A stretch of 64,000 nt of DNA. Origin: an uncultured archaeon (GTDB lineage: Archaea; Thermoproteota; Bathyarchaeia; Bathyarchaeales; Bathycorpusculaceae). Positions 2,434-35,035 of this stretch are shown here, in pieces. The DNA lies in NCBI GenBank assembly GCA_963782915.1, contig CAWALK010000025.1, positions 32,001 through 96,000 on the forward strand. Reading direction: 5' to 3'. The first letter of the stretch is position 1; every line of letters starts with the position of its first letter. The notes beneath the pieces were generated by a model. That model was not told the origin of the DNA. It worked only from the letters and a program-made list of their open reading frames with translations, and made no database searches. Both the position numbers and the translations under genes were made by a program.

Positions 2434-2618
2434 GAGCAAACACCCAAAACCAACCGAGCCCAAACACAGCCGCCTGCCAAGTCAAGCGGAAGACGATGGT
2501 ACAGGAGGTCCGCACCATTATCTACTGATAGAGAAGTACCCCAACCAAAAGGCTGCGCAAATTACTTGGAAAATTTTTATATAACCGCCCAAAGACAGGC
2601 TACTTAGAGGAACCTGTT

Positions 2619-2996
2619 TTGTCACAGAATGTTTGGAATAAACCTGTAATCTGTATTTTTAAAGAACGCACAGGAGACCACTGGGAATCTGACCCGTTTG
2701 TGGTTGTTAAAGCTAAACAAGTAACCGTAACCCCGCAAGACAACCAAAAATATGTTGGAGTCCTCACGGACTTCTTTACTCTTATGGGCGATGCAGAGTA
2801 CATTTCTTCAGCCGAAGGCAAAGCCGACCACTATGTAATGTGCTGGTTTGACGACACAGAACCCGACATGACCAAAGACCTCCGCCGATTAAGAGGCGTA
2901 AGGTTCAGCGGCGAAGTAACGCATAGCGAAAACCCCAAAACCCACAAACGAACATACAACGGCACCTTCACGGCAGAACAAGCAAAACTAACCTAA
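2619..2996 (+). CDS. Hypothetical protein
   Basis: 125-aa ORF, GAGG upstream, host-like codon usage. Confidence 0.7.
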   Translation: MSQNVWNKPVICIFKERTGDHWESDPFVVVKAKQVTVTPQDNQKYVGVLTDFFTLMGDAEYISSAEGKADHYVMCWFDDTEPDMTKDLRRLRGVRFSGEVTHSENPKTHKRTYNGTFTAEQAKLT

Positions 2997-3161
2997 ACCC
3001 CTCCCTTATTCAACATAAACTTGTTAAGCTACAGAGGCAGCGCTGCCTCTACCATGCAATAAATCCCCATAATTTATTGAGTTAATTGGCAATTTTATGC
3101 TATTTTTAAACTTACTCTTAAATATAACTTGATAAATTTCTATGGGATAAGGTCGTAGAGA

Positions 3162-3572
3162 ATGGTAGAGCAAAAACTACGCGCTATACTAATTACTGGC
3201 AGGACTATTGAACAGGGCGTTGGAAAAGAGCTTGGAAAAGGCTCCATAGAATACTATGATAGCTGCGCCGTTTGTTTCTTCAACAAAACCGACATGACAA
3301 AACTCGGCATAAAAAACGGCTCAATCGTCAAAGTCACCTCCAAATATGGCTCAGTCATAGTTAAAGCCCAAAAATATCAATGGGGCGTCAACCCAGGAAT
3401 GGTTTTCATACCCTGCGGTTCATGGGCAAACGCAATAACAGGCGACGAAACCTTCAGCATGGGCATGCCACTCTTCAAAGGATTCCCAGTTGAAGTAGAA
3501 GCAGCACCAAACGAGCCCATCATGACCTTAGATGAGCTCTTAATGAAACAGTTTGGAAGGAACAGTTTATGA
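3162..3572 (+). CDS. fwdD: Formylmethanofuran dehydrogenase subunit D
   Basis: LITGRTIEQG, GMVFIPxGxWAN, GMPLFKG motifs; first gene of operon. Confidence 0.92.
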   Translation: MVEQKLRAILITGRTIEQGVGKELGKGSIEYYDSCAVCFFNKTDMTKLGIKNGSIVKVTSKYGSVIVKAQKYQWGVNPGMVFIPCGSWANAITGDETFSMGMPLFKGFPVEVEAAPNEPIMTLDELLMKQFGRNSL

Positions 3573-5135
3573 CCGAAATAAAAAATGTTGTTTGTCCAAT
3601 CTGCGGTTGCCTCTGCGATGACTTAGAAGTCACCGTGGAAAACAACGAAATCGTCAAAATGAAAAACGGATGCGCCGTATGCGAAGCCAAAATGGTACAT
3701 GGCTACAAAAGCGAAGAACGCATCCTAAAACCCATGATAAGAAAAGACGGCAAACTTACACCAGTCACCATGGATGAAGCTGTAAAGAAAGCAGCCCAAA
3801 TCCTCACCGACGCAAAATATCCACTGCTCTTCGGCTGGAGCAGCACTGTGGGCGAAGCACAACGCATCGGCGTCGAATTAGCCGAAGAACTCGGATCAGC
3901 ACTAGACAACTGCTGCAGCGTCTGCCACGGACCATCCGTCATGGCAACACAAGAAATCGGCATACCCGCAGCAACACTAGGCCAAATCCGCCACAGAGCA
4001 GACTTAATCGTTTACTGGGCATGCAACCCATGGACAAGCCACCCACGCCACGTAGAACGCTACACCGCGTTCACCGACGGCCGCTTCGAAGGCAGCGAAT
4101 GGAAAAGCTACATGAACAAAATGAAAGCAGGCGCAAGCCGCAAAAAAATGGAAGTAGCCTCCAAACGCATCGACCGCGAAGAAGCACACATTAACCCACA
4201 AGTAGACATCAACGGCCCTCCACCACAAACACTACTGAAAGCCAGGCCGCAAAATGATTGTAGTCGATGTAAGAAAAACCATGACTGCAGAAGCAGCCGA
4301 CTACTTCATGCAAATCGAACCCAACCGCGACTACGACGTAATCGAAGCCCTACGCTGTCTAGTTCAAGATCAAGAATTAGATGTTGAAAAAGTCGGCGGA
4401 GTCCCAGTTGAATACCTGAGAGATGTCGCGGATGCCATGGTGAGTTGTGAATTCGGTGTAATTTACTTCGGACTTGGCATGACTCAAACTTTAGGCCGAT
4501 TCAGAAACATCGAAGTCGCCATCGCACTAGCAAGGGACCTTAACCGCAAAACAAAATTCATCATTTCACCCATGCGTGGACACTTCAACGTCACAGGCGC
4601 AAACACCGTGTTTGCTTGGCAAACAGGTTACCCATACGCAATTGACTTCTCACAGGGGTATCCACAATTTAACCCCGGAGAAAACACAGCCGTCGACCTA
4701 CTCAAACGAGGCGACAACGACGCAACACTAGTCATCTCCGCAGACCCAGGCGCCCACTTCCCCAAAGTCACCATGCAAAACATGATGAAGCACCCACTCA
4801 TCACCATCAACCCAGACATGAACGCCATCTCACGCTTAGGCGACGTCGTGTTCCCAGCACAATGGTGCGGCATAGAATACGAAGGCACAGCATACCGCAT
4901 GGATTCAGTCCCAATCACACTCAAAAAAGTAGTAGAAGCACCACCGGGAATCTTAACTGACGAGGAACTTTTAATTCGCATACTTGCTGAAGTCCGCGCA
5001 ATCAAAACCAAACGGGGCGAACCAGTCGAGCAATCCGAGTTAAAGTTTGCTCACCAACCTGATGCTCCCAGAGTATGCCCTGTTCCGGCAGCTAAACCTA
5101 AAAAAACAGTTAAAAAGCACAAGGAGTCCGCTTAA
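3569..5135 (+). CDS. fwdB: Formylmethanofuran dehydrogenase subunit B (Cys form; frameshift near 4240)
   Basis: CPICGCLCDD, SVCHGP (TGC, not TGA), HPRH, PMRGHFNVTG, EGTAYRMD. Confidence 0.93.
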
Positions 5136-6836
5136 ATGACTGAGATATTAATTAAAAACGGCTTTGTAGTTGACCCACTAAACAAGATTAACTGCCAAAA
5201 GATGGATATAGCCATCAAAGACGGCAAAATCGTAGAGAAAGTCAACGAGAAAACCGCGCAGATAATCGATGCTTCTGGCTTAACAGTTATGGCTGGCGGA
5301 GTAGACATCCACAGTCACGTAGCCGGCGCAGAAGTTAACATGGGCCGCATGATCCGCCCCGAAGACCACTACAAAGACCCAGTACACAAAACAACCATCA
5401 CACGCGCAGGCACAGGCTACTCAATCCCATCCACCTTCGTCACAGGCTACCGCTACTCAGAGATGGGTTACACCTCAGTCTTCAACGGCTCCATAGCACC
5501 GCTCAAAGCTAAACATGCCCATGAAGAATTAAACGACATACCCCTAATGGACAAAGCAACTTACGTTTTAACAGGCGACTGGTGGTTTGTCCTCGAACAA
5601 CTCGCAAAAGGCGACATAGACGAATGCGCCCGCCGTGTCTCATGGTTAATGAACGCCTCCAAAGGCTATGCAATCAAAGTTGTTAACCCCGGTGGCTTAG
5701 AAGCTTGGGGTTTCGGACACAACGTTCACAGCATCGACGATGTGGTGCCTAACTTCGGCATTACCCCACGTGAAATCATGCGTGGATTAATCAAAGTTAA
5801 CAAGATACTCAACATGCCCCACACAATCCACCTGCACACTAACAATCTAGGTATACCTGGCAACTACCAAACCACACTGGATACCATGAAAGCGCTAGAA
5901 GACTTATCCACTGACGGTAAACCAGTCTGCCACATTACCCACATTCAATTTGCCAGTTTCAAAGGCGAAAACTGGGGCAAATTCAAATCAGGCGCAGAAG
6001 AAATCGCCAACTACATGAACGCCCACAATCACATTACATTAGACATGGGTCAAGTAACATTCAAGGACACCACAACCATGACCGCTGACGGGCCATTCGA
6101 GTTCTCACTCTACGAGCTAGGCGGACACAACAAATGGGTAAACAGCGACGTTGAAACTGAAAGCAGCGGCGGCATCATACCCTTCCACTACAAGAAAAAC
6201 AGCCCCGTCAACGCATTACAGTGGTCAATCGGCTTAGAAATCGCTCTACTCATCAAGGATCCATGGAAAATCTTCATGACCACAGACCACCCCAACGGCG
6301 GACCATTCTACGATTACCCCAAAGTCCTCTCTTGGCTATACAGCAAAAAAGCACGTGAAGCAACACTTGCAAAATGCCACAAGAGCGCCAAGCGAAAAAG
6401 TTTACTCCCATCAATCGACCGCGAATTGAGCCTCTACGAAATCGCCATCATGACCCGCGCTGGAACCGCCAAAGCCTTAGGGTTACCCAACAAAGGCCAC
6501 TTAGGCGTCGGCGCAGATGCAGACATTGCAATCTTTAACATTAACCCAGAAACCCAAGACATCGCCCAGAAATTCAGAACCGCCCGCAAAGCCTTCGCCA
6601 ACACAGCATACACAATCAAAGACGGCACAGTAGTCGTCAAAGACGGCCAAGTAGTTAACGGCCAAGTCCCAGGCAGAACCCTGTGGGTTGATTCACAAAC
6701 AAAGGACCCATGCGAGATTGACGAAGAAATGAAGCGCAGATTCAAAGAATACTGGACAATCGAATACGAAAACTACGCAGTCACAGACCACTACGTTAAG
6801 GTTTCAGACAAATTAAGCATAAAGGCAAGTGTCTAA
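5136..6836 (+). CDS. fwdA: Formylmethanofuran dehydrogenase subunit A (amidohydrolase)
   Basis: GGVDIHSHVAG, RPEDH, KVVNPGG, TTDHPNGGPF. Confidence 0.96.
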   Translation: MTEILIKNGFVVDPLNKINCQKMDIAIKDGKIVEKVNEKTAQIIDASGLTVMAGGVDIHSHVAGAEVNMGRMIRPEDHYKDPVHKTTITRAGTGYSIPSTFVTGYRYSEMGYTSVFNGSIAPLKAKHAHEELNDIPLMDKATYVLTGDWWFVLEQLAKGDIDECARRVSWLMNASKGYAIKVVNPGGLEAWGFGHNVHSIDDVVPNFGITPREIMRGLIKVNKILNMPHTIHLHTNNLGIPGNYQTTLDTMKALEDLSTDGKPVCHITHIQFASFKGENWGKFKSGAEEIANYMNAHNHITLDMGQVTFKDTTTMTADGPFEFSLYELGGHNKWVNSDVETESSGGIIPFHYKKNSPVNALQWSIGLEIALLIKDPWKIFMTTDHPNGGPFYDYPKVLSWLYSKKAREATLAKCHKSAKRKSLLPSIDRELSLYEIAIMTRAGTAKALGLPNKGHLGVGADADIAIFNINPETQDIAQKFRTARKAFANTAYTIKDGTVVVKDGQVVNGQVPGRTLWVDSQTKDPCEIDEEMKRRFKEYWTIEYENYAVTDHYVKVSDKLSIKASV

Positions 6837-6838
6837 AC

Positions 6839-7648
6839 ATGATAACCCTAACACCTCTTAGAGCATTCGATGTTCCAATCCAAGCACCCTGCATAACACC
6901 CGAAAACTTTACAGGCAAAAGCGTTGCAGAAATCGCGAAAATGCCCCTAACAGAAGGCGTCCGAAACCTAACCTTAGCTGACCTCTTCAAAATCGAACAG
7001 AGCCCAGCTGAGACCCCGAGCATCACCATAAACGGCGAATGCAGTAAAGTCAAACGCGTCGGCCAAGGCATGAAAACCGGCGAAATCGTCGTAAACGGCA
7101 ACATCGGTATGCACACAGGCGAAAAAATGAATGGCGGCAAAATCACAGTAAACGGCAACAGCGGCGGATGGACAGGCAGCGAAATGAAAAAAGGCATCAT
7201 CGAAATCCACGGCGACGCAGGCGACTATACCGCTTCACCTTACAGAGGCAACGACCTCGGAATGAAAGGCGGCTTAATCACCGTTGACGGCAACGTCGGT
7301 ACAGATGTCGGCTGCTATCTCCAAGGCGGCATCATAAAAATCAAAGGCAACGCAGGCAGATTCCTCGGATTCCACATGAGCGAAGGCGCAATCTACGTTG
7401 AAAAAGACTGCGATGTCCGCACAGGCGCACTTATGAACGGCGGCAAAATCGTTGTCGGAGGCAAACTGGAAATCTTGCCCTCATTCACTATCGACAGCGT
7501 TAAACCTAAAGTCAAAGTGGACGATACCCTAAACGTGCCAGGACCATTCTATGTGTTCCTTGGCGACTTGTCTGAGCATGGCACCGGCAAAATCTTCGCT
7601 AACAAAGCAAACAATCCTGACCTTAAATTCTACGAGAAATACCTCTAA
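6839..7648 (+). CDS. fwdC: Formylmethanofuran dehydrogenase subunit C
   Basis: GxxMxGGxIxVxGN beta-helix repeats. Confidence 0.95.
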   Translation: MITLTPLRAFDVPIQAPCITPENFTGKSVAEIAKMPLTEGVRNLTLADLFKIEQSPAETPSITINGECSKVKRVGQGMKTGEIVVNGNIGMHTGEKMNGGKITVNGNSGGWTGSEMKKGIIEIHGDAGDYTASPYRGNDLGMKGGLITVDGNVGTDVGCYLQGGIIKIKGNAGRFLGFHMSEGAIYVEKDCDVRTGALMNGGKIVVGGKLEILPSFTIDSVKPKVKVDDTLNVPGPFYVFLGDLSEHGTGKIFANKANNPDLKFYEKYL

Positions 7649-8579: not shown

Positions 8580-9366
8580 ATGCGTCAAGTTGACATGACA
8601 AGGCTTGACTTATCAACAAGAACAGCAGTAAAAATGCGTGATTACGTCGCTGAAGAGGTTCCGCTGCAAATCACCGTTAACGGCGCTTACTCTTTTGTTA
8701 TTTGGTCTTCTCCTTCACAGTTTAAAGAGTTGGCGGTGGGTCACTTATTCGCCGAAGACATCCTGCGTAACGCAGATGAAATCGAGTCATTAACCTCTAA
8801 CGAAGCAAACAACACCTGTCAATTGCAGCTAAAACCCAGCATAAACCTCGACGAACGCCTCAAAAACCAGCGCCGAGGCACCCGCATAATCCCACTCATT
8901 AAAGCCAGCCACCTCAGCTTATCAACACGACGAAAAATTAATCGCTGTAAAATCCGATTTAACGATTAAAGCCCAAGTCATACTCGACGCCGTTAATCAA
9001 ATGAACGAAAAAGCCCTGGGCTTCAAAGAAACCGGCGGCTTACATGACTCAGGCATCTTCAAAGCAGACGGCACAATGGTTGCCTTCTCCGAAGACGTCG
9101 GCAGACACAACACCGTAGACAAAGTCATCGGGCAAGCATTGCTTAACAGGGAAAATTTTGCTGAATGCTTCATGTTTATCACGGGTCGTGTGCCGGGAGA
9201 CATGATTTACAAGGCAGCCAAAGTCGGTTTACCCATAGTGGCTTCGGGGGCGGCAGTGCTGAACTCAGGGATTTCATCGGCTGAAAAAGCAAACATTACA
9301 TTGGTTGGGTTTGTGCGGGGCAAACGCATGAACATCTACACTTGCCCGGAACGGATTCTTCTCTAA
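8580..9366 (+). CDS. fdhD: FdhD/NarQ sulfurtransferase accessory protein (frameshift near 8915)
   Basis: VAEEVPL, TGGLH, EDVGRHNTVDKVIG, TLVGFVRG. Confidence 0.9.
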
Positions 9367-10376
9367 GCACCGATTTTTTCTATGCAAAACGCTTTATCAG
9401 CAAGAGCTCGTTGTGCAAGTGATGTGCAATCGTTTGCTGTGTAAGCTTCCGCTTCTTTTCCGTAGTTTTCTGCTGCTTTTGCATAGGTTTGTTTTGCTAC
9501 GGTTTTTTTGGATAGTTTGAGTTGGGTTTCGCCGAGTTTTTCCTCGCTTAGTGCAGCCCAGAAAACAAGTTTATTCGCTTCAAAGTGGCAGGCGCAGTCG
9601 GCGAAAACAGGCAGAGCCTCCAAAAATTTGCCTTCACCGAGTAACTTTTGCCCATCCCTCAACTGTTGTAGTTGCTCAACCGGTAGGTTTGCTCTGTGGA
9701 AGCAGACGTCCTCAATAACTGGTCCTTCGATTGAGCGGGTTTTGAGGTTGGCGAGGTCTTCTTGGGAGTTAATGTTAACAAAACTTTTGAGTTCAGGGTC
9801 CAAGTTGCGGATTTGTTGAAGCGGCGAAACCAGATGGAGCGTGCTTGAGCTTCTTATGATGCCGTCTGCGTTGGCTCTGTTGAGTGCACAAAGCGTCAGC
9901 GCGGTTTCGATGCAGCTTTCCCGTTCTATTGCCATGAGTAGGGTTTCGATTGTGCCGTCTGGCCAGATTGGAACCGCCACGTTATAGTTTTTGCAGGCTT
10001 CAAGGAGGTAGTCGGCAACTTGTGGTTTTAAAAAGGGCATGTCCGTTGGCACTATGAGGCAGTATTGGGCGTTGGTTGCCTGTAATCCCGATGCTATGGC
10101 TAGGAGCGGTCCTTGGACTGGGCTGTTTTGTTGGTCCACTACAAACCTGACTTTTCCCGTTGCTTGTTTTTCTAGAAGCTGCTTGTATTGGGTTAAGCGT
10201 TGTTCATCGTTAACGCATACAAGAATCTCGTCTACAACGCCCTTTAAGTTCTCGATAACATGTACCAGAAGCGGTTTGCCATCGACTTCTGCGAGCGCTT
10301 TATCCTGCCACTGATTTGATGTTTGGAACCGTTTAGCGCTACCACCTGCTAAAATCAGCGCAGCATGATTACCCAT
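9363..10376 (-). CDS. mobA: Molybdenum cofactor guanylyltransferase with C-terminal helical extension
   Basis: LILAGGSAKRF, DKAL, GPLLAI, DMPFL, FVNINSQEDL. Confidence 0.88.
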   Translation of the reverse strand: MGNHAALILAGGSAKRFQTSNQWQDKALAEVDGKPLLVHVIENLKGVVDEILVCVNDEQRLTQYKQLLEKQATGKVRFVVDQQNSPVQGPLLAIASGLQATNAQYCLIVPTDMPFLKPQVADYLLEACKNYNVAVPIWPDGTIETLLMAIERESCIETALTLCALNRANADGIIRSSSTLHLVSPLQQIRNLDPELKSFVNINSQEDLANLKTRSIEGPVIEDVCFHRANLPVEQLQQLRDGQKLLGEGKFLEALPVFADCACHFEANKLVFWAALSEEKLGETQLKLSKKTVAKQTYAKAAENYGKEAEAYTANDCTSLAQRALADKAFCIEKIGA

Positions 10377-10385
10377 AGTTTTCCC

Positions 10386-10941
10386 CTAAAGAGATGCGTC
10401 CAGTCTGTTTCTGATTAGTTTAACGAGTTTTTCCCCGTCTTTGGGCACTTTGATTAGGGGGATTTCGCCGAAGCATTCTTCGGTGCTGTTTTCGGCTACT
10501 ACGCCTGTTACGGCTAAAATTGGGGGTACTGTGCCCTGCAATGTTCTTTCCAGGTCGGCTTGGTCTTTTGCCGTTAATGATTTTCGGTATATCTGCGCGT
10601 TTGGCGATTAAGTTGTGGAATCCTTCGATGAAGATTATGTCGAGTTTCTCTTTTTCTAGTAAGCTTAGGATTTTGTCGAGGTCGTTTAGTTCGCGGCCGG
10701 TTTTTTTGATGATGTCGATTTCCGTGGGGGAAATGGCGACGACGACTTTAGATCCTGCTTGGGCATAACGCCATGTGTTGGTGCCTTCTCGGTCGATGGA
10801 GAAGTCTTTGTGGTGTATGTGTTTGATGGCTCCGACACTGAGCCCTTCGTCCGAGAAGCGGCTGATTAAATACTCGATGGTCGTTGTTTTTCCTGAACCG
10901 CTCTGCCCCACTGCGGCGACAATTAAAACCGTACGTTTCAC
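10386..10941 (-). CDS. mobB: Molybdopterin-guanine dinucleotide biosynthesis protein B (frameshift near 10575)
   Basis: GQSGSGKTT, IKHIHH, IFIEGF. Confidence 0.9.
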
Positions 10942-11688: not shown

Positions 11689-12206
11689 TTATAATTGAAC
11701 CACCGATACTTGAATTCTGTATTGTCCTACTGGAGCACTGTCTCTAAACGTCAAGCCGATTCCTATATGGGCGGTTTGTCCAGGATTCATTGGTTCATTA
11801 AAGCCTATGTCTGATGGAAGAAACATAATGTATGTTAACACACTGCCTAACGTCGTTGGACCTGATGCTGGATTGACCAATGGGTCGCGTTGTAGAATGA
11901 AAATTGGGCTTGAAGGACTCGATTGGTCTGAACTGGTAATTGGTGAAGGCGGAAATATCTTCACTTCTAATCTAACTTTGGTGTATGCGTTTGGAGAGAC
12001 ATTTTGCACTGAGACATTGTATACATATTCATTGTTCTTGATCATCGTTGCCGTATTGGGATCTGTACCTACCCAACTTACAACGAAGGGTTGATCACTG
12101 ACCGTAAAGGTGCTTGATAGGGTATTGCTTAATATTAAAGCACCTAAGGTAGTTGGTATGAGGACTGCGAGAAGTGACAGCGCTATCAGCATTCTTTTCT
12201 TACGCG
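11689..12206 (-). CDS. Secreted/membrane-anchored beta-rich protein, paralog 1
   Basis: Basic N-terminus plus hydrophobic helix; shares LTFRDSAPVGQY with 12458-12991; SD GGAGGTGA followed by ACG. Confidence 0.75.
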
Positions 12207-12457
12207 TTTTTTCACCTCCCCAGAAGAAATTTAACAAAGAACCGATGGCTAAACTAAGACAAGTCAAATACGAAAAATCCTAAAAAGGCAGGCATTCTTA
12301 GCGTCGATTCTTTTGAGTACCCATCAATAGGTATCTTACCCATAGAATATAAGCGGTTGCTGGAACAAACTGTAACACTATCAGTTAAAACTCCTAAAAA
12401 AGGGGTAATAAGAGAAGATTAGAATATAGCCTGACGGCGTTCAATACTCCGCTTGTC

Positions 12458-12991
12458 CTAATAAGAAGACACTGATGCCTGAATGCTGTATTGTCCTACT
12501 GGGGCACTATCTCTAAATGTCAAGTTGATTACTACGTAGATGGTTTGTCCAGGGTTTATTGGGGCACCAAAAGAATATTCTGATGGAAGGGTCAGCATAT
12601 AAGTCAGTACACTTCCCACTGTTGATGGGGCTACTGGAACGCCAAGATTACCATTACGTTCGTGTTGCGAAAGCCAAATTGGGGATGAATCGAGCCCTGG
12701 CGGTGCACTATTGATTGGTGAGGGCGGAATTATCTTTACTACTAGGGTACTGTTTTGGTAGGTGTATGTGTTCGGTGAGACGTTGTGTACTGATATGTTG
12801 TATACATATGGGTTATTCTTGAGCATAGTTACCGAATTAGGATTCGCACCCTCCCAGCCTATGACGAATGGTGAGTCAGAGACTGTAAAGGTGCTCGACA
12901 ACATATTGCTTAATACTATAGCACCCAGAGCTGTTGGTATAAAAACTGCCAGAAGTGACAGCGACAGTAGCAGTCTTTTCTTTCTTTGCAT
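12458..12991 (-). CDS. Secreted/membrane-anchored beta-rich protein, paralog 2
   Basis: SD GGAGGTGA then ATG at 12991; tandem paralog of preceding gene. Confidence 0.8.
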   Translation of the reverse strand: MQRKKRLLLSLSLLAVFIPTALGAIVLSNMLSSTFTVSDSPFVIGWEGANPNSVTMLKNNPYVYNISVHNVSPNTYTYQNSTLVVKIIPPSPINSAPPGLDSSPIWLSQHERNGNLGVPVAPSTVGSVLTYMLTLPSEYSFGAPINPGQTIYVVINLTFRDSAPVGQYSIQASVSSY

Positions 12992-13295
12992 TTTTTCACC
13001 TCCGAAAAAAGCGTACAAAAGAACCAACGCCAACGGCAGAAAAGCAAAATGGGCGCGCGCGAGCTTTTTCTTAAACCATCAGCCTAACTGCTTTGCATCG
13101 GCTGTTTTGGATATTAATAGATACTCACTCAAAGGATATAATCGGTAGCTGGCTACACTTAAAACATTACCAATCACACAATAATATAGAAATTCTAATT
13201 CGTAGTTCTATATTTTGCATACTTGCCTGTGCTGCAAATTGGTATCTTGTAAATACGTTTTAATCTAGTAATGATGCGGTATATGCGCACTTTAC

Positions 13296-14628: not shown

Positions 14629-15811
14629 TTATTGGTTGTAGACGCGGATTTCCGTGACGTATCTTGCGAACATGTTGGCGATTGTTGCGTATCCGTCAGA
14701 TCCGACGAATGAAACCGTCAGATACGAGCCGTCACTGTAGCCGGGGAGGTTTGAGCTTGTGCTGTTTAAGTGATAAGCTAAAATCATAGTTACAGGTGCA
14801 TTCGGAGTTGCGGGGGCAACGGTTGCTGGGTTATACATCGTTAAGCCTGTGCCCGTGACTTCGGCGTAAGTGTAGTTTTTTACGTAGCCGTCTGCTGCAC
14901 TTAACAGATAATACTTGTCCGATGGATATGCCGCCTACTTGATTGAGCAGTGTAGTCATTGATACTCCGGCGTAGGTGCCGTAGTCGAAGATGCCGTTTG
15001 CGCTTTTGTATTTGCCTCCGAACCCTGAGGTTTGGGGGTATGCGGCAAGGTTTGCTGCGTTGAGTGTGAGGGTGGTGTTGTCGGCTCCGATGAGTGTTAC
15101 GTGGGTATCGGGAATCGCAAGCGGTATCACTTCCTCAATTGGTGGCGGTGTGGGCGAAGCGGTTGGTTGAGCTGTCGGTTGAACCGTCGGCACCGCCGTA
15201 GGCGCCGGAGTAGCCACGGGGTTCACCGTGAGTTTAACAACCATTTTTTCCCAAACATTCCCCGCAGTCGCCAAACCTTCAGTGCCCAAAACACCCAACA
15301 TCAACGGCCCATCACCACTAGCCAGCGCTGCCCCTTCAAATTGGTAAATTACTGTCAGTTTTAACGGTTGAGTTGCGGCTGCAACATTTCCGCTACTGTC
15401 ATAGGTTGTAAAATCTTGGCCGAGGGCAACTTGCTTGTAATTGTAAGTTGTTGTGTAGCCGTCGTGGGCTGTTGCGGTTAAGGTTTGGCCGTCTTGCATT
15501 CCCCCGACTAACGCAGTGAGGTCTGAGGCTGCTATGCCTGTGTATGTTCCGGCAGCTTTTATTTGGCCGCCTGACCTTGATGCGCCTTGACCGGTGTATG
15601 ATTCGAGTGCTGCTATCTCTGTTGCGGTCAGGGTTTTGGTTGTTCCGTCGCCGCCCACGACCGTTAAAGTCATGGTCGGGAGGGTGTTGTTTTGTGCGGG
15701 TTTGGCGAGCATGTATTCCGCCGCGACGGCTGAAATTGAGATTACGATTATGGTGATTAGGATTGCTGTGAGTATTTTTGTGTTAAATTTCCCTTTTTTT
15801 GGGGTTGTCAT
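14629..15811 (-). CDS. Membrane-anchored protein with two molybdopterin-binding (sulfite-oxidase-like) fold domains (frameshift near 14900)
   Basis: N-terminal TM; two repeats of YxGV/I..AxDGY..LxY..GxxL pattern separated by a Pro/Thr linker. Confidence 0.7.
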
Positions 15812-15844
15812 GGTTTTGCCTCGTTTGTTTAGAAAAACATTGAG

Positions 15845-15868
15845 CGACATTACTATTTAATCATATCG
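15845..15868. promoter_or_regulatory. ModE-type operator, site 1
   Basis: CGACATTA-CTATTTAA-TCATATCG, 24-bp palindrome upstream of 14629-15811. Confidence 0.7.
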
Positions 15869-15931
15869 GAAAACGCTGAAACAACAACACATCAAACAAA
15901 AACAAACCCACAAACAAAACAAGCAAACAAC

Positions 15932-16966
15932 TCAAACAAAGCCGCACTTAACACGTTTCCTAACAAAAAACACGCAAACCCCAACAACAGCCAAAACCAA
16001 AACAACCCCCACAACGGCCAAACCTGCAAGAAAACTTTCGCTATCAATAGAGTCATTTCGAAAAGCCGTGTCTAGAGTAAAACTGTTGTTTGAATCTGCG
16101 GCGTATTGATTCGTGTATAGGCTGAAGGTTTGCACATCAACGGTGCCCTTTGCTGTGTCAAAAGTTAGGATTCGCGCAGACGCAGCACCCAACTTGCCAT
16201 AAGCATCCTGCTGATTGAAGAGCAACTCATCCCTGCCGCCAACCCTCGTTCGGTTACCCTGAGTGGGATAGTAATGCCCGCTTAGCGTCAAAAACACGTT
16301 AGCGTGAGTATCGAGCACTGTATTTTTGAAATTGGTGGCCCAGTCATCGTATCGGCATTGCTTGTCAATGTAAGCGTGGGTGGCTACGATGGCATGCGCC
16401 TGAGGGTAAGCATCCAGTACGCTGTTTGCCCAAGCCAAGACGGTATCGTTTGCGTTATATGCTATATTCACTATCAAGCATTCCCAACCAGACACGTTGA
16501 AGAATACGGCGTTATTCATGCCATCAAACTCTGTACTTACCCAATACGACTTTGAGGCCAGTGCCTGGGGGTTGAAGGCTGCGTATTGGTTGCCCATCCA
16601 AAAAGTCCTGTTAAAATCGTGATTGCCCGCAGCCCAACAATAAGGAATACCCGCATCAAGCAGAATGCCCATGGATTGATTCGCGTTAAGCCACTGTGTA
16701 CGGTTTCCTTCACTATTGACAAGGTCTCCGGTGTGGATAACCATTTGGACGTTGTATACGTCGCTGTTTTGCACTATCCAGCGGCTCAGGTTAGTGTTGT
16801 ATGCTGGGTTGCTTTCCGCGAGGTACTGTGTGTCGGTTATCCAAATTATCGAAAAACCTTTGTTTCCGGCTGTGGCTGGGCTGGGTTGAGCATATGCTGT
16901 CATCAAAGGGGCAAGGGCAAATGATAGTAACGCTAATGTACAGATGCGGAGGGCTGCTTGTTTCAC
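15932..16966 (-). CDS. Secreted, C-terminally anchored calcineurin-like metallophosphoesterase
   Basis: Signal peptide; TDTQ, HTGDLV, GNHD, THAY, LSGH; C-terminal TM followed by RKR. Confidence 0.88.
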   Translation of the reverse strand: MKQAALRICTLALLSFALAPLMTAYAQPSPATAGNKGFSIIWITDTQYLAESNPAYNTNLSRWIVQNSDVYNVQMVIHTGDLVNSEGNRTQWLNANQSMGILLDAGIPYCWAAGNHDFNRTFWMGNQYAAFNPQALASKSYWVSTEFDGMNNAVFFNVSGWECLIVNIAYNANDTVLAWANSVLDAYPQAHAIVATHAYIDKQCRYDDWATNFKNTVLDTHANVFLTLSGHYYPTQGNRTRVGGRDELLFNQQDAYGKLGAASARILTFDTAKGTVDVQTFSLYTNQYAADSNNSFTLDTAFRNDSIDSESFLAGLAVVGVVLVLAVVGVCVFFVRKRVKCGFV

Positions 16967-17002
16967 TTTTTTCTCTCGCAGTTTTGGTTTAAAGAAAATT
17001 GG

Positions 17003-17026
17003 CGATATGACTATAAAATACTATCG
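17003..17026. promoter_or_regulatory. ModE-type operator, site 2
   Basis: CGATATGA-CTATAAAA-TACTATCG between a TTTTAAAA box and the GTG of the phosphoesterase. Confidence 0.72.
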
Positions 17027-17069
17027 ATGATTTTAAAAATATTGTTAAATTAAAAGAGGGCTGGATATG

Positions 17070-18003
17070 CTACTCTTTTGGGCACGTAACCGTCTGGCAC
17101 CTAAACCTATAGCCCCTGCAGAATTCCCAGAAAGCCTCCGACGGCTTAAGCAACGCATTCTTCGGCCTAGCCATGTAAAGTTTACGTGCACTCTTACCCT
17201 CAGCGATAGGAATCACCTTAACTAATCCGGCAGCTTGAGCCTTCGCAGCCGCAATCGACGAAATAATGCTAATTCCCCTGCCCTCCGAAACAGCAGTAAC
17301 CACCGATTCTGTACTGCCCAACTCAAAAGCTATTTTAATCTGCATAAAATCAATCTTGTTGGCTTCCAGCAACTTTTCAGTTTCCAACCTTGTACCCGAG
17401 GTTTCCTCTCTGACAATGGCAGGGTACTTTAGGGCTTCAGAGAGTTTAATTGCCTTATGCTTGGCTAACTCATGGTTGCATGGCTGTAATGAAAACTAAC
17501 TGTTCTTCCCCGATTGGGAGGTAATCGAATTTTTCTTCGAAACCCTGCATTGTTCCGACAGCAGCGAATTCTGCATCGTTTGCCTGTAAGCTTGCCAAAC
17601 TGCTTTGGCTGTCTTGGGCTTTTATTTTGAATTTTACGTCGGGATATTTCTTCTGGAATTCCGCGATTAAGCCGGGGATGATGTGTTCTTCGGGTATTGT
17701 GCTGGCGGAGATGCGTATGGTTCCCGATAGGGTGTGTTTGGCGCTGGAGATTTTTGCTTTGGCATCCTGTGCCTGCTGAAGGATGCGTTCGGCTGCTTGC
17801 TTTAGGGTTGCGCCGGCTTCGGTGACTTCCACGCCGTTGGGGGTGCGTTTGAAGAGTTCAGCGTCAAAGAAGCCCTCTAGGGCAGCGATGTGGTGGCTGA
17901 CGGTGCCTTGGCTGGTTTTGAGTTCTTTGGCTGCGACTGAAAAACTGCGAGTTCTATCCACCGTAAGGAATGTGTTCAGATAATCGAACCGTATAGTTTC
18001 CAT
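17070..18003 (-). CDS. LysR-family regulator, selenium-metabolism-associated type (frameshift near 17485)
   Basis: SFSVAAKEL..SQGTVSHHIAALE HTH, ASTIP, REETSGTR, ELGSTESVVTAV; divergent from selD cluster. Confidence 0.85.
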
Positions 18004-18141
18004 GCGCTTTGTTTCCTCTGAAATATCTTTCAGTATACATTTATCACTAATTATATTAATATTCCATTTCTGAATACGCATAACACCTTTATATTTGTTT
18101 TTCTAATAGCCTCTATCAACAAATCTCAAGGATGAAGCAAC

Positions 18142-18493
18142 ATGGCAACTTTCACAATAATCATCTATGAAGCCCCATACGCAAAAGAACGCGCCCTCTC
18201 AGCACTGCGCTTTGCATGGACCGCAGATTTAGAAGGAAACAAAGTGCGCATATGGCTGTTTGAAAACGGCGTATACCTCGCCAAGAAAGGCCAAAAACCA
18301 GCACAGGGCTTAACCAACTATGGCCAAATGCTCGAAGACATGATAAAAGGCGGCGTAGAAGTCAAAGGCTGCATAGTCTGCGCTGACGCACGCGGCATTG
18401 TCGCAGGCTGAACTTATCGACGGCGTCAAACTTGCCACTGTCCATGACCTTGTCGAGTGGACCTCAACCAGCGATAAAGTCCTTACTTTTTAG
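18142..18493 (+). CDS. DsrE/TusD-family sulfur (selenium) relay protein (frameshift near 18400)
   Basis: APY..E, ENGVY.AKKGQ, CIVCADARG; C-terminus AELIDGV..DKVLTF in next frame. Confidence 0.88.
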
Positions 18494-18501
18494 GGATCAA
18501 T

Positions 18502-18727
18502 GTGAGCATCGAGAAATTGGATGTTAAGGGCAAAATGTGCCCGCTCCCCGTTGCTTTTACAAAGCGCAAGCTCGAAGCCATGGCGTCTGGGCAGCTTTTG
18601 GAGGTTGTGGGTGAGGGTGAATTGGAGTTTGATAACATTCAGCGTTGGGTGAGGAATAATGGGCATGAAGTGGTTGACGCCTCCAAGTCTGGATGGCGAG
18701 TTTAGGGTGCTAATCAAGAAAACGTAG
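18502..18727 (+). CDS. tusA: TusA/SirA-family sulfur carrier (frameshift near 18690)
   Basis: LDVKGKMCPLP motif. Confidence 0.88.
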
Positions 18728-18851
18728 GTGCCATTAATTTTTTTAATTTGCTTCTAAAGATTGGGTCAGCTATTAGTTTTTTTAATAGCAAAAATGAAAG
18801 TTTTTAATACGTCGGCTGCATTCCTATTTGCCCAACGGACATGGGACGAGT

Positions 18852-20145
18852 ATGTCAGAGAAATACATTGAAATGTGGAAAAACATCGGAATGGACATAG
18901 AAAAACACAACATCCTCCTAAACGCACTAGGCGGATTCTACACAGACATCTACCTATCACAAAAAAACCGCCCCAAAAAAATGGATTACTTCGACTACGT
19001 CATCTCAGAAATCCATGGCGGACGAATAAAAGAATTAAACGACCAACGCGCCAAAGGCAAAAAAGTCATCGGAGCCTTCTGCATCTACGCCCCCGAAGAA
19101 CTCGCATACGCAGCAGACGCCTTAATGGTTGGTTTATGCGGCGGCGCAGACTTCTCGGTACCAGACGCAGAAGCAGTATTGCCCCGCAACCTCTGCCCAC
19201 TAATCAAATCATTCTACGGCTTCAAACTTAACCGAACCTGCCCATACTTCCAAACAAGCGACCTCGTCGTGGGCGAAACCACCTGCGACGGCAAAAAGAA
19301 AGTCTACGAACTCCTAGCTGAACTTATCCCAACATATGTGCTTGAGATTCCCCATAAACCAGATACAGCCCAGGGCAAAGAGTTCTGGCTAAAAGAACTC
19401 GAAGCTTTCAAAACTAAACTTGAAGAAGTAACAGGCAACAAAATAACCGCTGAAAGCCTCAAAAAATCCATCGAATTAATCAATAACAAACGCAATGCCC
19501 TCAAACGCCTCTCCGATTTGCGTGCCAATTCGCCTTCGCCAATCAGCGGCTTAGACGCATTATTGATTAATCAAATCAGCTTCAACGATGACCCCGTACG
19601 CTTCACCGCTAAAGTAAACGAACTCTGCGACGAACTCGACCAGCGAGTACGCGATGGCGTCGGAGTTGCAGCCAAAGATGCGCCAAGGCTACTGGTTTCG
19701 GGTTGCCCAATGGCTATTCCCAACTGGAAACTCCACAGCATAGCCCAAGCAACAGGCGCAACCATCATTGCCGAGGAAAGCTGCGTTGGCACACGCTACT
19801 TCACCGACCTAGTCGAACCCAAAGGCGACAGCATCAACGAATTGCTCTGGGCAATCGTTGAGAAATACAGCAAGATACCCTGCGCATGCTTCACACCCAA
19901 CGATGCACGCATAAAAAACATCCAATCACTCGCAACACAATTCAAAGCTGACGGAGTCATCTACTATACACTGCAGAACTGCCATGACTATAACGTTGAA
20001 GGCGTCAAAGTTGACCGCGCAATGAAGCAGCAGGGTTTGCCGATGCTGAAAATCGAAACAGACTACGCCATGGGTGATGCCGCTCAGATTCAAACACAGA
20101 CTCGAAGCGTTCTTGGAAATCATAGCTGGCAAAAAACAAGCCTAA
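18852..20145 (+). CDS. Double-cubane cluster protein (HgdB/FldB 2-hydroxyacyl-CoA dehydratase superfamily; frameshift near 20095)
   Basis: FCIYAPEE, GLCGG, PRNLCPLIKS, CPYF, GETTCDGKKK, GCP, EESCVG, CACFTPN, CHDY, IETDY. Confidence 0.85.
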
Positions 20146-20221
20146 ACCCTTCTTTTTCCCTCTTTTTAATTTCAACATTTTTATTCAGTTAATGACTAAA
20201 TCAATGTAGGCGAAAAACAAA

Positions 20222-21241
20222 ATGAGTTACCGCTTAACCAAAGCCGTTCCCGTTCATGGATGCAGTTGTAAGCTGCCTCAGTATCAACTGGGCGATTTAC
20301 TTGATCAGGCAGGTATGACTGGCGGGTTTGGTGAGGAAGTGCTGGCTGGACCCTGGGAAAACAGCAGCGTCGTCAAAATCGCCGATAACATCGCAATATT
20401 AAACACGCTCGATTTTTTCACGCCCATGGTTGATGAACCAGAAATCCAAGGGCGCATCGCAGGCAGCAACGTCACAAGCGACATCTACGCCTTAGCCGTA
20501 ACCAAAATCGCCAGCGTCTTAACAATTATGGCGTTTCCCGAGAATATGCCAACGGAGCTTGCGGTGGGTATGCTTAAGGGGTTTGGGGATTTCTGCCGTG
20601 AAATGGATGCGCCAGTCGTTGGTGGGCATACTATCCGTAATCCTTGGCCGATTATTGGCGGTGCTGCAACGGGTATTGGTGATCCTGAAAAGATTGTTTA
20701 TACTAAGGGGGCAAAACCTGGCGACCGATTATTTTTGACTAAACCTTTGGGTATTGCGCCTGCGATGGCAGCTTATCGTTTGCGCAAGGAGGACGAAGGC
20801 AAAGAACTCCTTGAAGGTGTGCCTGAAGACTTGATTGATGAAGCCGTTAATCAGGCAATTACTGGGATGATTACTTCAAACAAGCCTGTTGCAGAAGCTA
20901 TGCAGCAGGTGCCTGTCCATGCAGCCACAGACGTAACAGGCTTCGGACTCAAAGGGCACGCAGCAAACATGGCGATGCTGGGCAAAGTCGACATAGTCAT
21001 CGACAAATTATGGGTTATCCGCGGAACACCGCAACTCACAGACATCTTCGGTTATCCATTACTAACAGGGGAATCGAAGGAAACCGCAGGCGGCATGCTC
21101 ATCGCAGTAGCCAAAGAAGACGCTGATGACCTCCAAAGCGAATTAGACAAACGAAAAGTGAAACATTGCGAAGTCGGCTACGTCAAAGAGGGCAACGGCA
21201 ACGTTAACGTGCTAAAAGACGCAAAAGTAGTAGAAGCTTAA
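20222..21241 (+). CDS. selD: Selenophosphate synthetase, Cys form
   Basis: GCSCK, DFFTPMVD, SDIYA, GGHT, LTKPLG, TDVTGFGLKGH. Confidence 0.92.
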   Translation: MSYRLTKAVPVHGCSCKLPQYQLGDLLDQAGMTGGFGEEVLAGPWENSSVVKIADNIAILNTLDFFTPMVDEPEIQGRIAGSNVTSDIYALAVTKIASVLTIMAFPENMPTELAVGMLKGFGDFCREMDAPVVGGHTIRNPWPIIGGAATGIGDPEKIVYTKGAKPGDRLFLTKPLGIAPAMAAYRLRKEDEGKELLEGVPEDLIDEAVNQAITGMITSNKPVAEAMQQVPVHAATDVTGFGLKGHAANMAMLGKVDIVIDKLWVIRGTPQLTDIFGYPLLTGESKETAGGMLIAVAKEDADDLQSELDKRKVKHCEVGYVKEGNGNVNVLKDAKVVEA

Positions 21242-21420
21242 CATCGCTTGCTCTCTGGGGCCTATCCCTCTATTTGTAGGATCAACACTTGTTGTGTTCC
21301 CTGTTTTGGTTGTCAGCATTCATTGTTTAGCGGGTGTGGGGAAACTGCGTTTGTTAGGGGAACTTGTTGGGTTTCTATGCGGCTGTTTTTGGGCTCTGTA
21401 GGTTTTGGGTATTTGGGTTC

Positions 21421-21459
21421 TGTTGCTTTGCCAAGGACCCCCCTCCCCCTATATATAGA
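21421..21459 (-). repeat. Short form of dispersed G-rich repeat
   Basis: TGTTGCTTTGCCAAGGACCCCCCTCCCCCTATATATAG joins both ends of the long repeat. Confidence 0.65.
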
Positions 21460-21515
21460 AAAAAACGTTAATTCTCATACGAGTATTGCCTCTACCAGCA
21501 AAACACACAAGCTGC

Positions 21516-22016
21516 TTAGCTTACTTCTATTGCAGCCACGCCACGAACCATTCTCTGCGAATACTCATCGTCGCCGATAACAAGCCTGTATGGTCCTTCC
21601 CCGCCCTCACTGAGAGGTGACATTGTTGCTCCTTCCTTTTTGTAAGCGATGAAAACGTTGTCTTTTTGGGCTTCCTGCATGGTAAGGGTTGTTCCGTAGC
21701 CGTCTGAAGCTTGAATGTAGATTGAGGTGGCGTTGCTTGATATTTGGGCTGCTGTGAGGAGCTCTTTTAGGGTGACGCCTGTGTAGCTGTAGACGCCGTT
21801 GTCGCCCTGATGCCCATTTACGGTTACTTGCAAAGTGACGGCTGGGTATGCTTCTAATTGGGTGTAGGTTAGGTTTGCTGGATTGCCGACTTTGCCTCTG
21901 ATTTGCAGGGTCCCCGTGGGCTGTGAGGTGTCTGGTCGAGTGTAGTAATAGAGCGGAATAACCGCGATAATTAAAACGATGAAGGCTGCGAGGGCTATTT
22001 TGGTTGATTTCTTCAT
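21516..22016 (-). CDS. Membrane-anchored molybdopterin-binding-fold protein without Cys
   Basis: LQIRGKV..YTGVTLKELL..ASDGY..IAY..GPYRLVI..VRGVAAIEV; N-terminal TM. Confidence 0.8.
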   Translation of the reverse strand: MKKSTKIALAAFIVLIIAVIPLYYYTRPDTSQPTGTLQIRGKVGNPANLTYTQLEAYPAVTLQVTVNGHQGDNGVYSYTGVTLKELLTAAQISSNATSIYIQASDGYGTTLTMQEAQKDNVFIAYKKEGATMSPLSEGGEGPYRLVIGDDEYSQRMVRGVAAIEVS

Positions 22017-22594
22017 GGTATTCCCTTTAATTTTCCGTTTAAACCGATTTTTCCAATCCTAACAAGAAGCATATTTGCGATGAAGCCTCCGATGCAGCCG
22101 CTAATAGCCGCGACTACCGCCAAAAATGCTAGTACCTCCAAGGGCAAAAACAGCACCAAACCCCCCACAAGCACAGTTCCAACAACATTGGCGACTGCGC
22201 AAGCACCCATGCAACATCCCAAACAACACGCCTTATGGCGCAAGAGCAAGAAGAAACCGTCGATTGCTAAGCCAGGCCCAAGATAGATAACAAAGGAGAG
22301 TAACCCAAAGTTGCCGTATGGAAGAATCAGGCTGATGAACGCTTGCGTTAACGAAACCATGGTTGCTGCGCCAGGCTTGCCTACAAAACCAAACGCCATC
22401 ACAGGCCACATCATGTATAAACCGCCCATAACCGCGCCCGTGGGAACATAAATCGCCCCCATTAATGGACCGATTAGCGGATGCAGGATGTTTTTGGTTG
22501 CTAAACCTAAACTTGCAAACAGCGCCATCAACACTAAGTCGACTGTTGCGATTCTTAAGTTGCTGTTGCGCAGGGTGTAGTTTGGCAGAGTCAT
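22013..22594 (-). CDS. ECF transporter S component
   Basis: About 6 TM helices, 193 aa, DLVLMAL..GKPGAA pattern. Confidence 0.8.
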   Translation of the reverse strand: MTLPNYTLRNSNLRIATVDLVLMALFASLGLATKNILHPLIGPLMGAIYVPTGAVMGGLYMMWPVMAFGFVGKPGAATMVSLTQAFISLILPYGNFGLLSFVIYLGPGLAIDGFFLLLRHKACCLGCCMGACAVANVVGTVLVGGLVLFLPLEVLAFLAVVAAISGCIGGFIANMLLVRIGKIGLNGKLKGIP

Positions 22595-22602
22595 GCCGAA
22601 TC

Positions 22603-22626
22603 CGATATGCTAAATTGGTAACATCG
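22603..22626. promoter_or_regulatory. ModE-type operator, site 3
   Basis: CGATATGC-TAAATTGG-TAACATCG (extends to TCCGAT..ATCGGA), 8 nt upstream of the ECF-S ATG and downstream of a TTTAAT box. Confidence 0.75.
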
Positions 22627-22660
22627 GAAAATTAAACCTTACCCCAAAAACCAATGCAGT

Positions 22661-22990
22661 CTATGGGTTTTCTTTCACAGTTTGGGCTAATGTTACCTGC
22701 ATTTTTCTGTACTGAAGAACCAAATCTTTCCCAAAAGCCGTAACTTCAGAAGAACCACCGCCTTTAGCGCCGCCCCTGCTTCGTGTAACCAACGCTTGGC
22801 CGAGTCTTTCTTCCGCCAAAGTTATCCTGTGGAGTGCATAGCGGTAGGACATCTCTAAGTGTTTGGCTGCTTCCAAAACCGAGTGGTGCTCATTTATTTC
22901 TTCAAGCAGTTTAGCTATGCCGTCGCCGAAGATTGCTTCGTCTTTGTCGTTTACCATCCAGAGCTTAAATCTGAAACTTAATGGACACAT
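22661..22990 (-). CDS. modE: ModE-family winged-helix regulator (DNA-binding domain only)
   Basis: IFGDGIAKLL..SV..AAK.L.MSYRYA..RGGAKGGGS.VT.FG. Confidence 0.88.
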   Translation of the reverse strand: MCPLSFRFKLWMVNDKDEAIFGDGIAKLLEEINEHHSVLEAAKHLEMSYRYALHRITLAEERLGQALVTRSRGGAKGGGSSEVTAFGKDLVLQYRKMQVTLAQTVKENP

Positions 22991-35032: not shown

Positions 35033-35035
35033 TAG

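Follow-up and report, generated by a model that had tools for sequence, protein, structure and literature searches.

We describe a candidate salvage pathway for the molybdenum or tungsten (Mo/W) pterin cofactor, encoded in the DNA of an uncultured member of the Bathyarchaeia. The DNA that was analyzed, referred to here as the window, is a stretch of 64,000 nucleotides (contig CAWALK010000025.1, positions 32,001 to 96,000; G000:C25:32001-96000 in our numbering) from a genome assembly, G000, of 3.28 Mb in 25 contigs, which is 93.5% complete. Annotation of the window with family profiles places three minus-strand units, each headed by a palindrome, and the gene for a 109-residue ModE-like regulator in the region from 14.6 to 23.0 kb. 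The units encode the S component of an energy-coupling factor transporter (ECF-S), two surface proteins with the sulfite oxidase (SUOX) fold and a metallophosphoesterase. An original prediction, made from the sequence alone, read these genes as a means to capture a pterin outside the cell, trim it and import it. We propose, with a probability of roughly 0.6, that the regulon does serve such salvage, and that its cargo would be molybdopterin carrying tungsten or molybdenum, or a close derivative. The proposal is supported by the conservation of the operator, by synteny that spans Archaea and Bacteria, by the fold relationships of the proteins and by the pattern of moa gene loss, which are established here, as is the finding that this operator also governs mod operons. 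The elements of the regulon are as follows (scores and genome-wide ranks are from the matrix search described below).

14629..15811, minus strand: SUOX-fold surface protein of two domains, anchored at its N terminus, with a Pro/Thr linker and one frameshift near 14902
15845..15868: operator site 1 (23.1 bits, rank 2); its center reads TTAAATA on the minus strand and is TATA-like
15932..16966, minus strand: metallophosphoesterase, predicted to be extracytoplasmic, that has a signal-like segment at its N terminus and a membrane anchor at its C terminus (PF00149)
17003..17026: operator site 2 (14.9 bits, rank 4), with an AT-rich center, TTTTATA on the minus strand
21516..22016, minus strand: 166-residue SUOX-fold protein, predicted to be membrane-anchored, Cys-less and of the size of PruR (PF00174)
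22013..22594, minus strand: ECF transporter S component with a YkoE-like fold (PF09819)
22603..22626: operator site 3 (30.3 bits, rank 1), between the TATA-like GGTTTAATTTT and the ECF-S start codon
22661..22990, minus strand: 109-residue ModE-like regulator consisting of the winged helix-turn-helix N-domain only, with no Mop or TOBE domain (PF00126, TIGR00637)

A conserved operator heads three gene units

All three palindromes lie where the original prediction had located them, and each stands upstream of a minus-strand unit: the two-domain gene (site 1), the phosphoesterase gene (site 2) and the ECF-S/SUOX-fold gene pair (site 3). Site 3 is 8 bp ahead of the ECF-S ATG at 22594, site 2 is 36 bp ahead of the phosphoesterase GTG at 16966, and site 1 is 33 bp ahead of ATG 15811 (MTTPKK), where the two-domain gene probably starts. 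Each site departs by one mismatch from the core CGATAT-N12-ATATCG. The 16-letter consensus first put forward is matched with 2, 2 and 3 mismatches at the three sites; shuffled sequences are expected to give 0.18 matches and none of 100 shuffles gave three, in a test that is circular since the consensus was derived from these same sites. Across the 3.28 Mb genome the 12-letter core with at most one mismatch occurs five times, against one to six times in five order-3 Markov genomes, and is thus not enriched; however, three of the five matches fall within 7 kb, and all three are in promoters. The case for the palindromes being real rests on their clustering, their position and their conservation upstream of orthologs.

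A position weight matrix (PWM) for which 10 orthologous sites in other genomes were the sole input, and which is thus independent of the window, ranks site 3 first and site 1 second in the genome, the latter above the maxima of 15.6-20.8 bits found in 10 simulated genomes. Perfect counterparts of site 2 are present at the orthologous position in two relatives (G187 and G157), so that site 2 is supported by orthology despite its own weak score; the phosphoesterase promoter seems to have its TATA box in the AT-rich center of this site. An operator lies upstream of the ECF-S ortholog in 11 of 11 close loci, at 0-10 bp from the start codon, and, at about 30 bp from the start of the tblastn match, in 38 of another 39 archaeal loci. 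The 38 orthologous operator sites are all distinct in sequence, and every one has CG at positions 1-2 and 23-24. Directly 5' of the orthologous ECF-S operators is a TATA-like GTTTATTT. Perfect operator sites also precede the phosphoesterase and two-domain orthologs in G151, G157 and G187, where those ahead of the two-domain genes are near-identical counterparts of site 1. The operators either overlap the TATA elements in the three promoters or come immediately after them, so that the bound regulator should block transcription.

A ModE-like regulator and its targets in relatives

The gene beside site 3 is of the modE type, as had been claimed, and encodes only the N-domain of that family. Its 109-residue product matches PF00126 (2.2e-7) and TIGR00637, ModE_repress (9e-17; 61 bits, below the curated cutoff of 98.5), and its matches in the PDB are 2ijl (4e-8) and, over the N-domain only, E. 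coli ModE (1b9m, 0.005). A ModE-like homolog is found within 31 of the 39 archaeal loci. The ModE motif of M. acetivorans, verified by electrophoretic mobility shift assay, is RTTATGT-N8-RCATAAY (PMC12327845). The Bathyarchaeial operator is a variant of this box and some sites match it exactly, for example CGTTATGTTTAAATAAACATAACG in G007. The palindromes would thus be archaeal ModE-box-type operators for the neighboring regulator.

Genomes of relatives that lack the ECF-S gene carry the operator directly ahead of modA/wtpB/wtpC operons (G038, 27.7 bits; G102, 23.9; G127, 17.5; G136, 16.9). Just upstream of the mod/wtp operon in G038 and G102 is a 109-residue open reading frame (ORF), and that of G038, which was scanned, matches ModE_repress. 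Both types of target occur together in the locus L084, in which one ModE-like gene heads an operator-controlled operon for an SBP_bac_11 (modA-type) protein, a permease and an ATPase, followed by operator-ECF-S-SUOX-fold, operator-two-domain protein and operator-phosphoesterase units. The ECF-S set of G187 is embedded among genes for SelD, two MobB proteins, MobA, MoeA, FdhD and FwdC, and a second operator in the locus L089 lies between two divergent mobB genes. Since the same operator and the same type of regulator control modABC/wtpABC-type transporters in relatives, the three units and the regulator are, as judged from these sequences, a Mo/W acquisition regulon, and we are highly confident that the regulon is real. 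Its members in G000 include no oxyanion transporter.

A locus in another relative (L045; G283:C16:29000-38000) contains an ORF at 2156-4054 for a 632-residue protein with a SUOX-like (GEGP-type) domain, which heads an operon with WtpA; upstream of it there is only a one-mismatch operator pattern with a PWM score below 11 bits.

An S component paired with PruR-like surface proteins

The ECF-S protein matches PF09819 (7e-13; 49.2 bits against a cutoff of 25.2), and its AF2 model (pLDDT 77.7) is predicted to have the six-helix S-component fold. Its best Foldseek match is 5edl (E 2.8e-4; TM 0.65/0.64), which we take to be YkoE, the entry title saying only 'S-component of ECF transporter'; PanT, RibU, BioY and ThiT follow. 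A phmmer search of the PDB matched no S component, and these proteins were found only by the fold search. Archaeal and bacterial members of the subfamily share an invariant RH(K/R)ACCxxCC at the predicted cytoplasmic turn between transmembrane helices 4 and 5 (residues 119-128); because the searches used three seeds of which this motif was one, some of the invariance seen in the wider set follows from how that set was assembled. In G000 we found only a distant EcfT with one EcfA (L024) and two CbiMQ sets.

The stop codon of the ECF-S gene overlaps the start of the 166-residue SUOX-fold gene by 4 bases. Co-folding of the two proteins gave a score of 0.45, with the best control at 0.00, and weakly supports their contact; the mark applied is reached by 58 of 80 solved complexes and by 2 of 110 mismatches, and at scores of 0.60 or below by 7 of those 80 and by both mismatches. 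Between co-fold runs, at least 86% of the contacts are the same, and the pLDDT of the partners is at least 77. A Cys-less SUOX-fold gene stands beside the ECF-S gene in 48 of 53 loci, in Archaea and Bacteria, with one to three SUOX-fold paralogs behind ECF-S per locus.

The 166-residue protein (PF00174, 5e-15) contains no Cys at all, as the original prediction had it, and consists of an N-terminal anchor and a 135-residue domain that folds as the molybdenum cofactor (Moco) domain of SUOX (AF2 pLDDT 86.8). Among the top structural matches of this model in Foldseek are SorA (1.3e-9), YedY (1e-8), SoxC, nitrate reductase and sulfite oxidase. No column of conserved Cys is seen in a 31-sequence alignment of the SUOX-fold family (A1), and the hairpin that carries the Mo-ligand Cys in SorA is deleted. 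In the two-domain gene, the only Cys of the larger ORF (14831-15850) sits in the out-of-frame tail. The two frames of this gene have 56% and 55% identity to the intact 402-residue ortholog of G157; the frameshift is located at ~14876-14922, and the second piece comprises 69 residues at 14629-14838. In the contig of a relative (one contig, depth 2.6) one base is missing at 14902, and the break may therefore be an assembly indel.

The closest characterized likeness is to PruR of A. tumefaciens (Atu3496; PDB 7kos, 7kou, 7kom, 7rkb, 7kp2), a minimal, exported or anchored SUOX fold of ~140-170 residues that likewise has no Mo-ligand Cys, has a shortened hairpin and keeps the stacking Tyr. PruR is described as a secreted, Cys-less SUOX fold whose pterin site is what remains of the Moco site, with neopterin or monapterin held between Y104 and W160 and a hydrogen bond from N102 (PMC11194511). 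Our model of the 166-residue protein aligns with PruR structures 7kom and 7kos with a TMt of 0.75-0.78 and a root-mean-square deviation of 3.0 Å over 148 columns, and a profile of the SUOX-fold family finds PruR in the PDB at 1.3e-5. In the profile alignment, N102 and Y104 of PruR fall on the invariant D105 and Y107 of the family; W160 is outside the aligned region, and a near-invariant W156 of the family is noted separately. The window family differs in having Asp in place of the PruR Asn, in that the Pro-Trp (PW) motif was not seen in it, in its archaeal and clostridial hosts and in regulation tied to Mo/W. It differs also in its partners, since PruR acts with a DcpA-type cyclic di-GMP enzyme and signals, whereas the window proteins accompany ECF-S and a phosphoesterase; no GGDEF or EAL family was found among the annotated neighbors of the SUOX-fold loci.

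A phosphoesterase slot filled by two enzyme families

The phosphoesterase matches PF00149 (1.6e-8; 35.7 bits against a cutoff of 21.5) and has orthologs of 57-64% identity behind operators in G151, G157 and G187. The best phmmer match in the PDB (3zk4, E 0.077) is non-significant, and no enzyme class can be assigned. In bacterial loci this slot is filled either by a Metallophos/purple-acid type protein or by an NPP-type nucleotide pyrophosphatase. Since two unrelated enzyme families fill one slot, the system appears to need phosphodiester or pyrophosphate cleavage, and this would fit the trimming of dinucleotide forms of the cofactor. In one locus (L101:4965-6779, from a metagenome-assembled genome (MAG) labeled Thermoleophilia), ECF-S is fused to an NPP-type phosphodiesterase/nucleotide pyrophosphatase domain in a protein of 604 residues.

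Dedicated operons and riboswitches in Bacteria

Dedicated operons occur in loci labeled Clostridia and Thermoleophilia. Their components vary by locus and include SUOX-fold proteins (some with SLH or Big_2 domains), ECF-S, sometimes MobB, and a phosphoesterase; EcfA, EcfA' and EcfT are encoded in the operon in three bacterial loci (L102, L107 and L111). At the head of three of the 14 loci from outside the Bathyarchaeia stands the Moco/Tuco riboswitch RF01055, which scores 63-69 bits (gathering score, 36). When the seven bacterial loci that have no riboswitch were scanned with Rfam at a relaxed threshold, no match reached E <=0.01, and the thiamine pyrophosphate (TPP) riboswitch was found in none of the 14 loci scanned. 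AOR is present in one of the three riboswitch-led genomes. The locus is carried, too, by what is labeled as the complete genome of a cultivated Bathyarchaeon (L089), which is without MoaC and MoaE.

Close copies of the archaeal locus (54-71% identity) are found in MAGs labeled Methanocella, Saccharibacteria, Nanoarchaeia and Limnocylindrales (L081, L082, L098, L100), and these could be binning errors or gene transfer.

Carriers that have lost genes for cofactor biosynthesis

Gene content was compared in a matrix of 25 genomes, made up of 11 close carriers of ECF-S and 14 non-carriers, six of which were chosen for a missing MoaC match. Carriage of ECF-S tracks the loss of moaA, moaC and moaE: all six genomes that lack the three genes are carriers, and none of the 14 non-carriers is without moaE. 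These six, the only genomes of the matrix in which MoaE is missing, are G000, G151, G157, G193, G090 and G098; they form two clades, in genera g1 and g30, and profile searches give no match in any of them to MoaC, the MoaA C-domain or the ModA/WtpA family. The loss of MoaE in 6 of 11 carriers against 0 of 14 non-carriers corresponds to a one-sided Fisher p of ~0.003 by hand, a value that is descriptive only, given the kinship of the genomes and the chosen rows. TupA was not found in G000, in which the strong PBP_like_2 matches are PstS.

The genes that flank moaC-moaB-moaA in G187 lie 1.1 kb apart on contig C18 of G000 with no remnant between them, and those that flank moaE are 197 bp apart on contig C22, again with no remnant. 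As the flanking genes are found within contigs, the losses in G000 are deletions and not assembly gaps. All six Moa-less genomes nevertheless keep intact AOR genes, and each of the three that were checked for it (G000, G157 and G193) keeps one MoeA. Import of cyclic pyranopterin monophosphate (cPMP) was considered as a source of the cofactor and rejected, since the MoaE needed to use cPMP is deleted. Among genomes without a MoaC match, G052 and G058 are without AOR too; in G046 and G041, where MoaE is present, the missing MoaC is probably an assembly gap.

An apparent co-loss of GTP cyclohydrolase IB (PF02649) with the Moa genes was set aside as a confound, the family being absent from 21 of the 25 genomes regardless of carriage. 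The four genomes that have it (G187, G283, G217 and G229) are all carriers with the Moa pathway kept.

Genomic neighborhood of the regulon

MobA, MobB, FdhD and Fwd, which the original prediction had placed near the regulon, are all identified in the window by NCBIfam. The genes on either side of the units, and between them, are listed below.

3162..7648, plus strand: FwdD, FwdB (split), FwdA and FwdC of formylmethanofuran dehydrogenase, a user of the cofactor (NCBIfam)
8580..9366, plus strand: FdhD, split by one frameshift in the assembly (NCBIfam)
9363..10941, minus strand: the cofactor maturation genes MobA (9363-10376) and MobB (10420-10941) (NCBIfam), which are likewise neighbors in locus L054 of G187
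17070-18081, minus strand: LysR regulator of the selenium-metabolism type (NF040786), split (family profiles)
18142-21241, plus strand: genes for DsrE-like and TusA-like proteins, a double-cubane-cluster reductase and SelD (family profiles)

The last two entries form a selenium-type island (17070-21241) between operator sites 2 and 3, with no operator ahead of it. SelD is next to the ModE-like gene in G187 (L054) as well, and in G151 (L036) the regulon has an unsplit LysR of the selenium-metabolism kind as its neighbor. Two paralogous, exported or anchored proteins of ~190 residues (11689-12267 and 12458-13033), with no family match and no operator ahead of them, are encoded between MobB and the regulon. 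Further along the window, at 33452-36448, genes for an FlaI/ArlI-like ATPase and FlaJ/UpsF-like membrane proteins make up a type IV pilus or archaellum-like assembly cluster. Single frameshifts split FwdB (3569-5135), FdhD (8580-9366), the two-domain SUOX-fold gene (14629-15850), LysR (17070-18081) and DsrE (18142-18460). One base is missing at 14902, and one at 18396, in low-depth contigs from relatives, and the breaks may be assembly indels rather than signs of pseudogenes.

Discussion

Our analysis suggests a model for the salvage of the Mo/W pterin cofactor in which the membrane-anchored, Cys-less, PruR-like SUOX-fold proteins would capture the pterin outside the cell, and the surface phosphoesterase would trim the dinucleotide or phosphate forms of the cofactor. 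The trimmed product may then be carried into the cell by ECF-S, energized by an EcfT/EcfA module encoded elsewhere, and would be finished by MoeA, MobA, MobB and FdhD for use by AOR and Fwd.

Several observations weigh against this model. The ligand is something we infer, as are the role of the phosphoesterase, the hand-over from receptor to S component and the effector of the regulator. The PruR authors consider the shortened pocket too small for whole Moco (PMC11194511), and the same shortened hairpin is found in the SUOX-fold family of the window, whose 166-residue member moreover has Met at the near-invariant W156. The CCxxCC motif lies outside the usual S-component pocket and would also suit thiophilic inorganic species. 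As for the regulation, the independent PWM score of site 2 (rank 4) is within genome-wide noise and significant only locally; the 109-residue regulator has an HTH_1 domain only and no Mop/TOBE molybdate-binding domain, and profile searches found no TOBE domain in G000, G157, G193 or G090. In five of the 11 close carriers, MoaE and the MoaA C-domain are kept and MoaC has a match that is at least partial (in G007 it is weak and partial only), so that the system is not confined to auxotrophs, and at the level of the class 59 of 301 genomes have no MoaC match, of which only six are carriers. G019 (family f20; 1.0 Mb, 93% complete) has three AOR genes and, by profile, no MoaC, MoaE or ECF-S, and may have another source of the cofactor or genes that were not assembled. 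The three riboswitch-led genomes have no MoaC or MoaE match, in MAGs whose completeness is not established. Finally, MoeA is kept, though a metal-loaded cargo would not obviously need it; its retention is a hint that insertion of the metal still takes place in the cell, although no oxyanion transporter was found.

In a rival reading, ECF-S and the SUOX-fold proteins would import the metal itself, as tungstate, molybdate or thio-forms, in place of ModABC/WtpABC, with the pterin coming from elsewhere. Oxyanion transporters are the classical targets of ModE boxes and of Moco riboswitches, the operator stands ahead of modA/wtp operons in relatives, and both the invariant RH(K/R)ACCxxCC of the S component and the kept metal-insertion enzyme MoeA are in keeping with such a function. 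In the six Moa-less genomes without ModA/WtpA, and in G000 without TupA, the system would then be the sole remaining route of Mo/W uptake. Yet metal import leaves genomes with clean deletions of moaCBA and moaE, but with AOR and Fwd, with no source of molybdopterin. It does not account for a capture domain of pterin-binding fold in which the pterin-stacking Tyr is invariant, and it gives no role to the conserved phosphoesterase/nucleotide pyrophosphatase slot, which is once fused to the S component; L084, furthermore, has its operator-controlled modA-type ABC operon alongside the ECF-S system. We regard metal import as unlikely, although it is the rival that fares best.

Slightly less probable again is that the SUOX-fold proteins bind a pterin other than Moco, as PruR does, for the salvage or sensing of, for example, a precursor of methanopterin or folate. 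The pocket is shortened in the same way as that of PruR, which binds monapterin and neopterin, and the one to three paralogs of each locus could differ in specificity. A non-Moco pterin is harder to reconcile with regulation through a ModE box that mod operons have too, or through the Moco riboswitch seen in Bacteria, or with clustering with MobA, MobB, MoeA, FdhD and Fwd; the co-loss is specific to the Moa pathway, with PF02649 mostly absent irrespective of carriage, and no DcpA-type partner is seen among the annotated neighbors. That ECF-S is an ordinary YkoE-type transporter for thiamine or hydroxymethylpyrimidine, with the adjoining genes and palindromes unrelated, is very improbable: PF09819 membership, the match to 5edl and the source annotation of homologs as 'thiamin/hydroxymethylpyrimidine transport system permease' speak for it, but against it stand the absence of TPP riboswitches from all 14 loci as compared with Moco riboswitches at three, the lack of any phmmer match to an S component in the PDB, the invariant Cys motif of the subfamily, the SUOX-fold pairing, the conserved operator and a context of MobA/B, MoeA, FdhD and Fwd in place of thiamine genes.

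The proposed importer of the Mo/W pterin cofactor combines features of several known systems. With ECF vitamin importers it shares the six-helix S-component fold, membership of PF09819 and, in bacterial homologs, operons with EcfA, EcfA' and EcfT. By definition, ECF systems need no extracytoplasmic binding protein, whereas the S component of the window type has outward-facing SUOX-fold proteins as its partners, often together with a surface phosphoesterase, and has its own Cys motif and ModE-box or Moco-riboswitch control. Surface nucleotide pyrophosphatases of the NadN/UshA type trim NAD or FAD ahead of vitamin uptake, and the likeness here, a dinucleotide cofactor cut outside the cell to a transportable core, is one of logic. 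The ModE-modABC regulons of E. coli and M. acetivorans (the latter in PMC12327845) resemble the present one in the DNA-binding domain, the geometry of the palindrome and, through its relatives, the control of mod/wtp operons; in contrast to them, the window regulator is without Mop, and the G000 regulon consists only of the ECF/SUOX-fold/phosphoesterase set. Dietary Moco uptake by C. elegans also takes the finished cofactor from other cells, but in an animal, and by transport machinery that is unknown, whereas here a defined prokaryotic gene set is proposed. A 2021 review names C. elegans as the only known exception to de novo Moco synthesis (PMC9026282). The original prediction knew of no characterized ECF system for Moco, and the literature that we searched likewise yielded none, no prokaryotic importer of Moco or molybdopterin, and no ECF system tied to the Moco riboswitch; the term 'ECF' does not occur in the accessible part of a 2026 review of pterin signaling.

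More broadly, we see even chances that certain members of the Bathyarchaeia and of the anaerobic Clostridia are true auxotrophs for the W/Mo pterin cofactor and, by means of PruR-like receptors, a phosphoesterase and a dedicated ECF-S, live on what their neighbors release. This would be the first prokaryotic pathway for Mo/W uptake at the level of the cofactor, and its Mop-less ModE-like repressor may sense the status of the cofactor and not molybdate. The system offers parts that can be tested: small soluble ectodomains, complete bacterial operons, and a predicted repressor of 109 residues together with its clear 24-bp operator. If the proposal is true, it would overturn for prokaryotes the rule that any cell using the cofactor must make it de novo, and explain genomes that encode W/Mo enzymes without the biosynthetic pathway. 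It would also provide a case of an ECF transporter working with extracellular receptors, give metabolic modelers a marker of cofactor auxotrophy, and add a very labile cofactor to the publicly traded metabolites of anoxic sediments.

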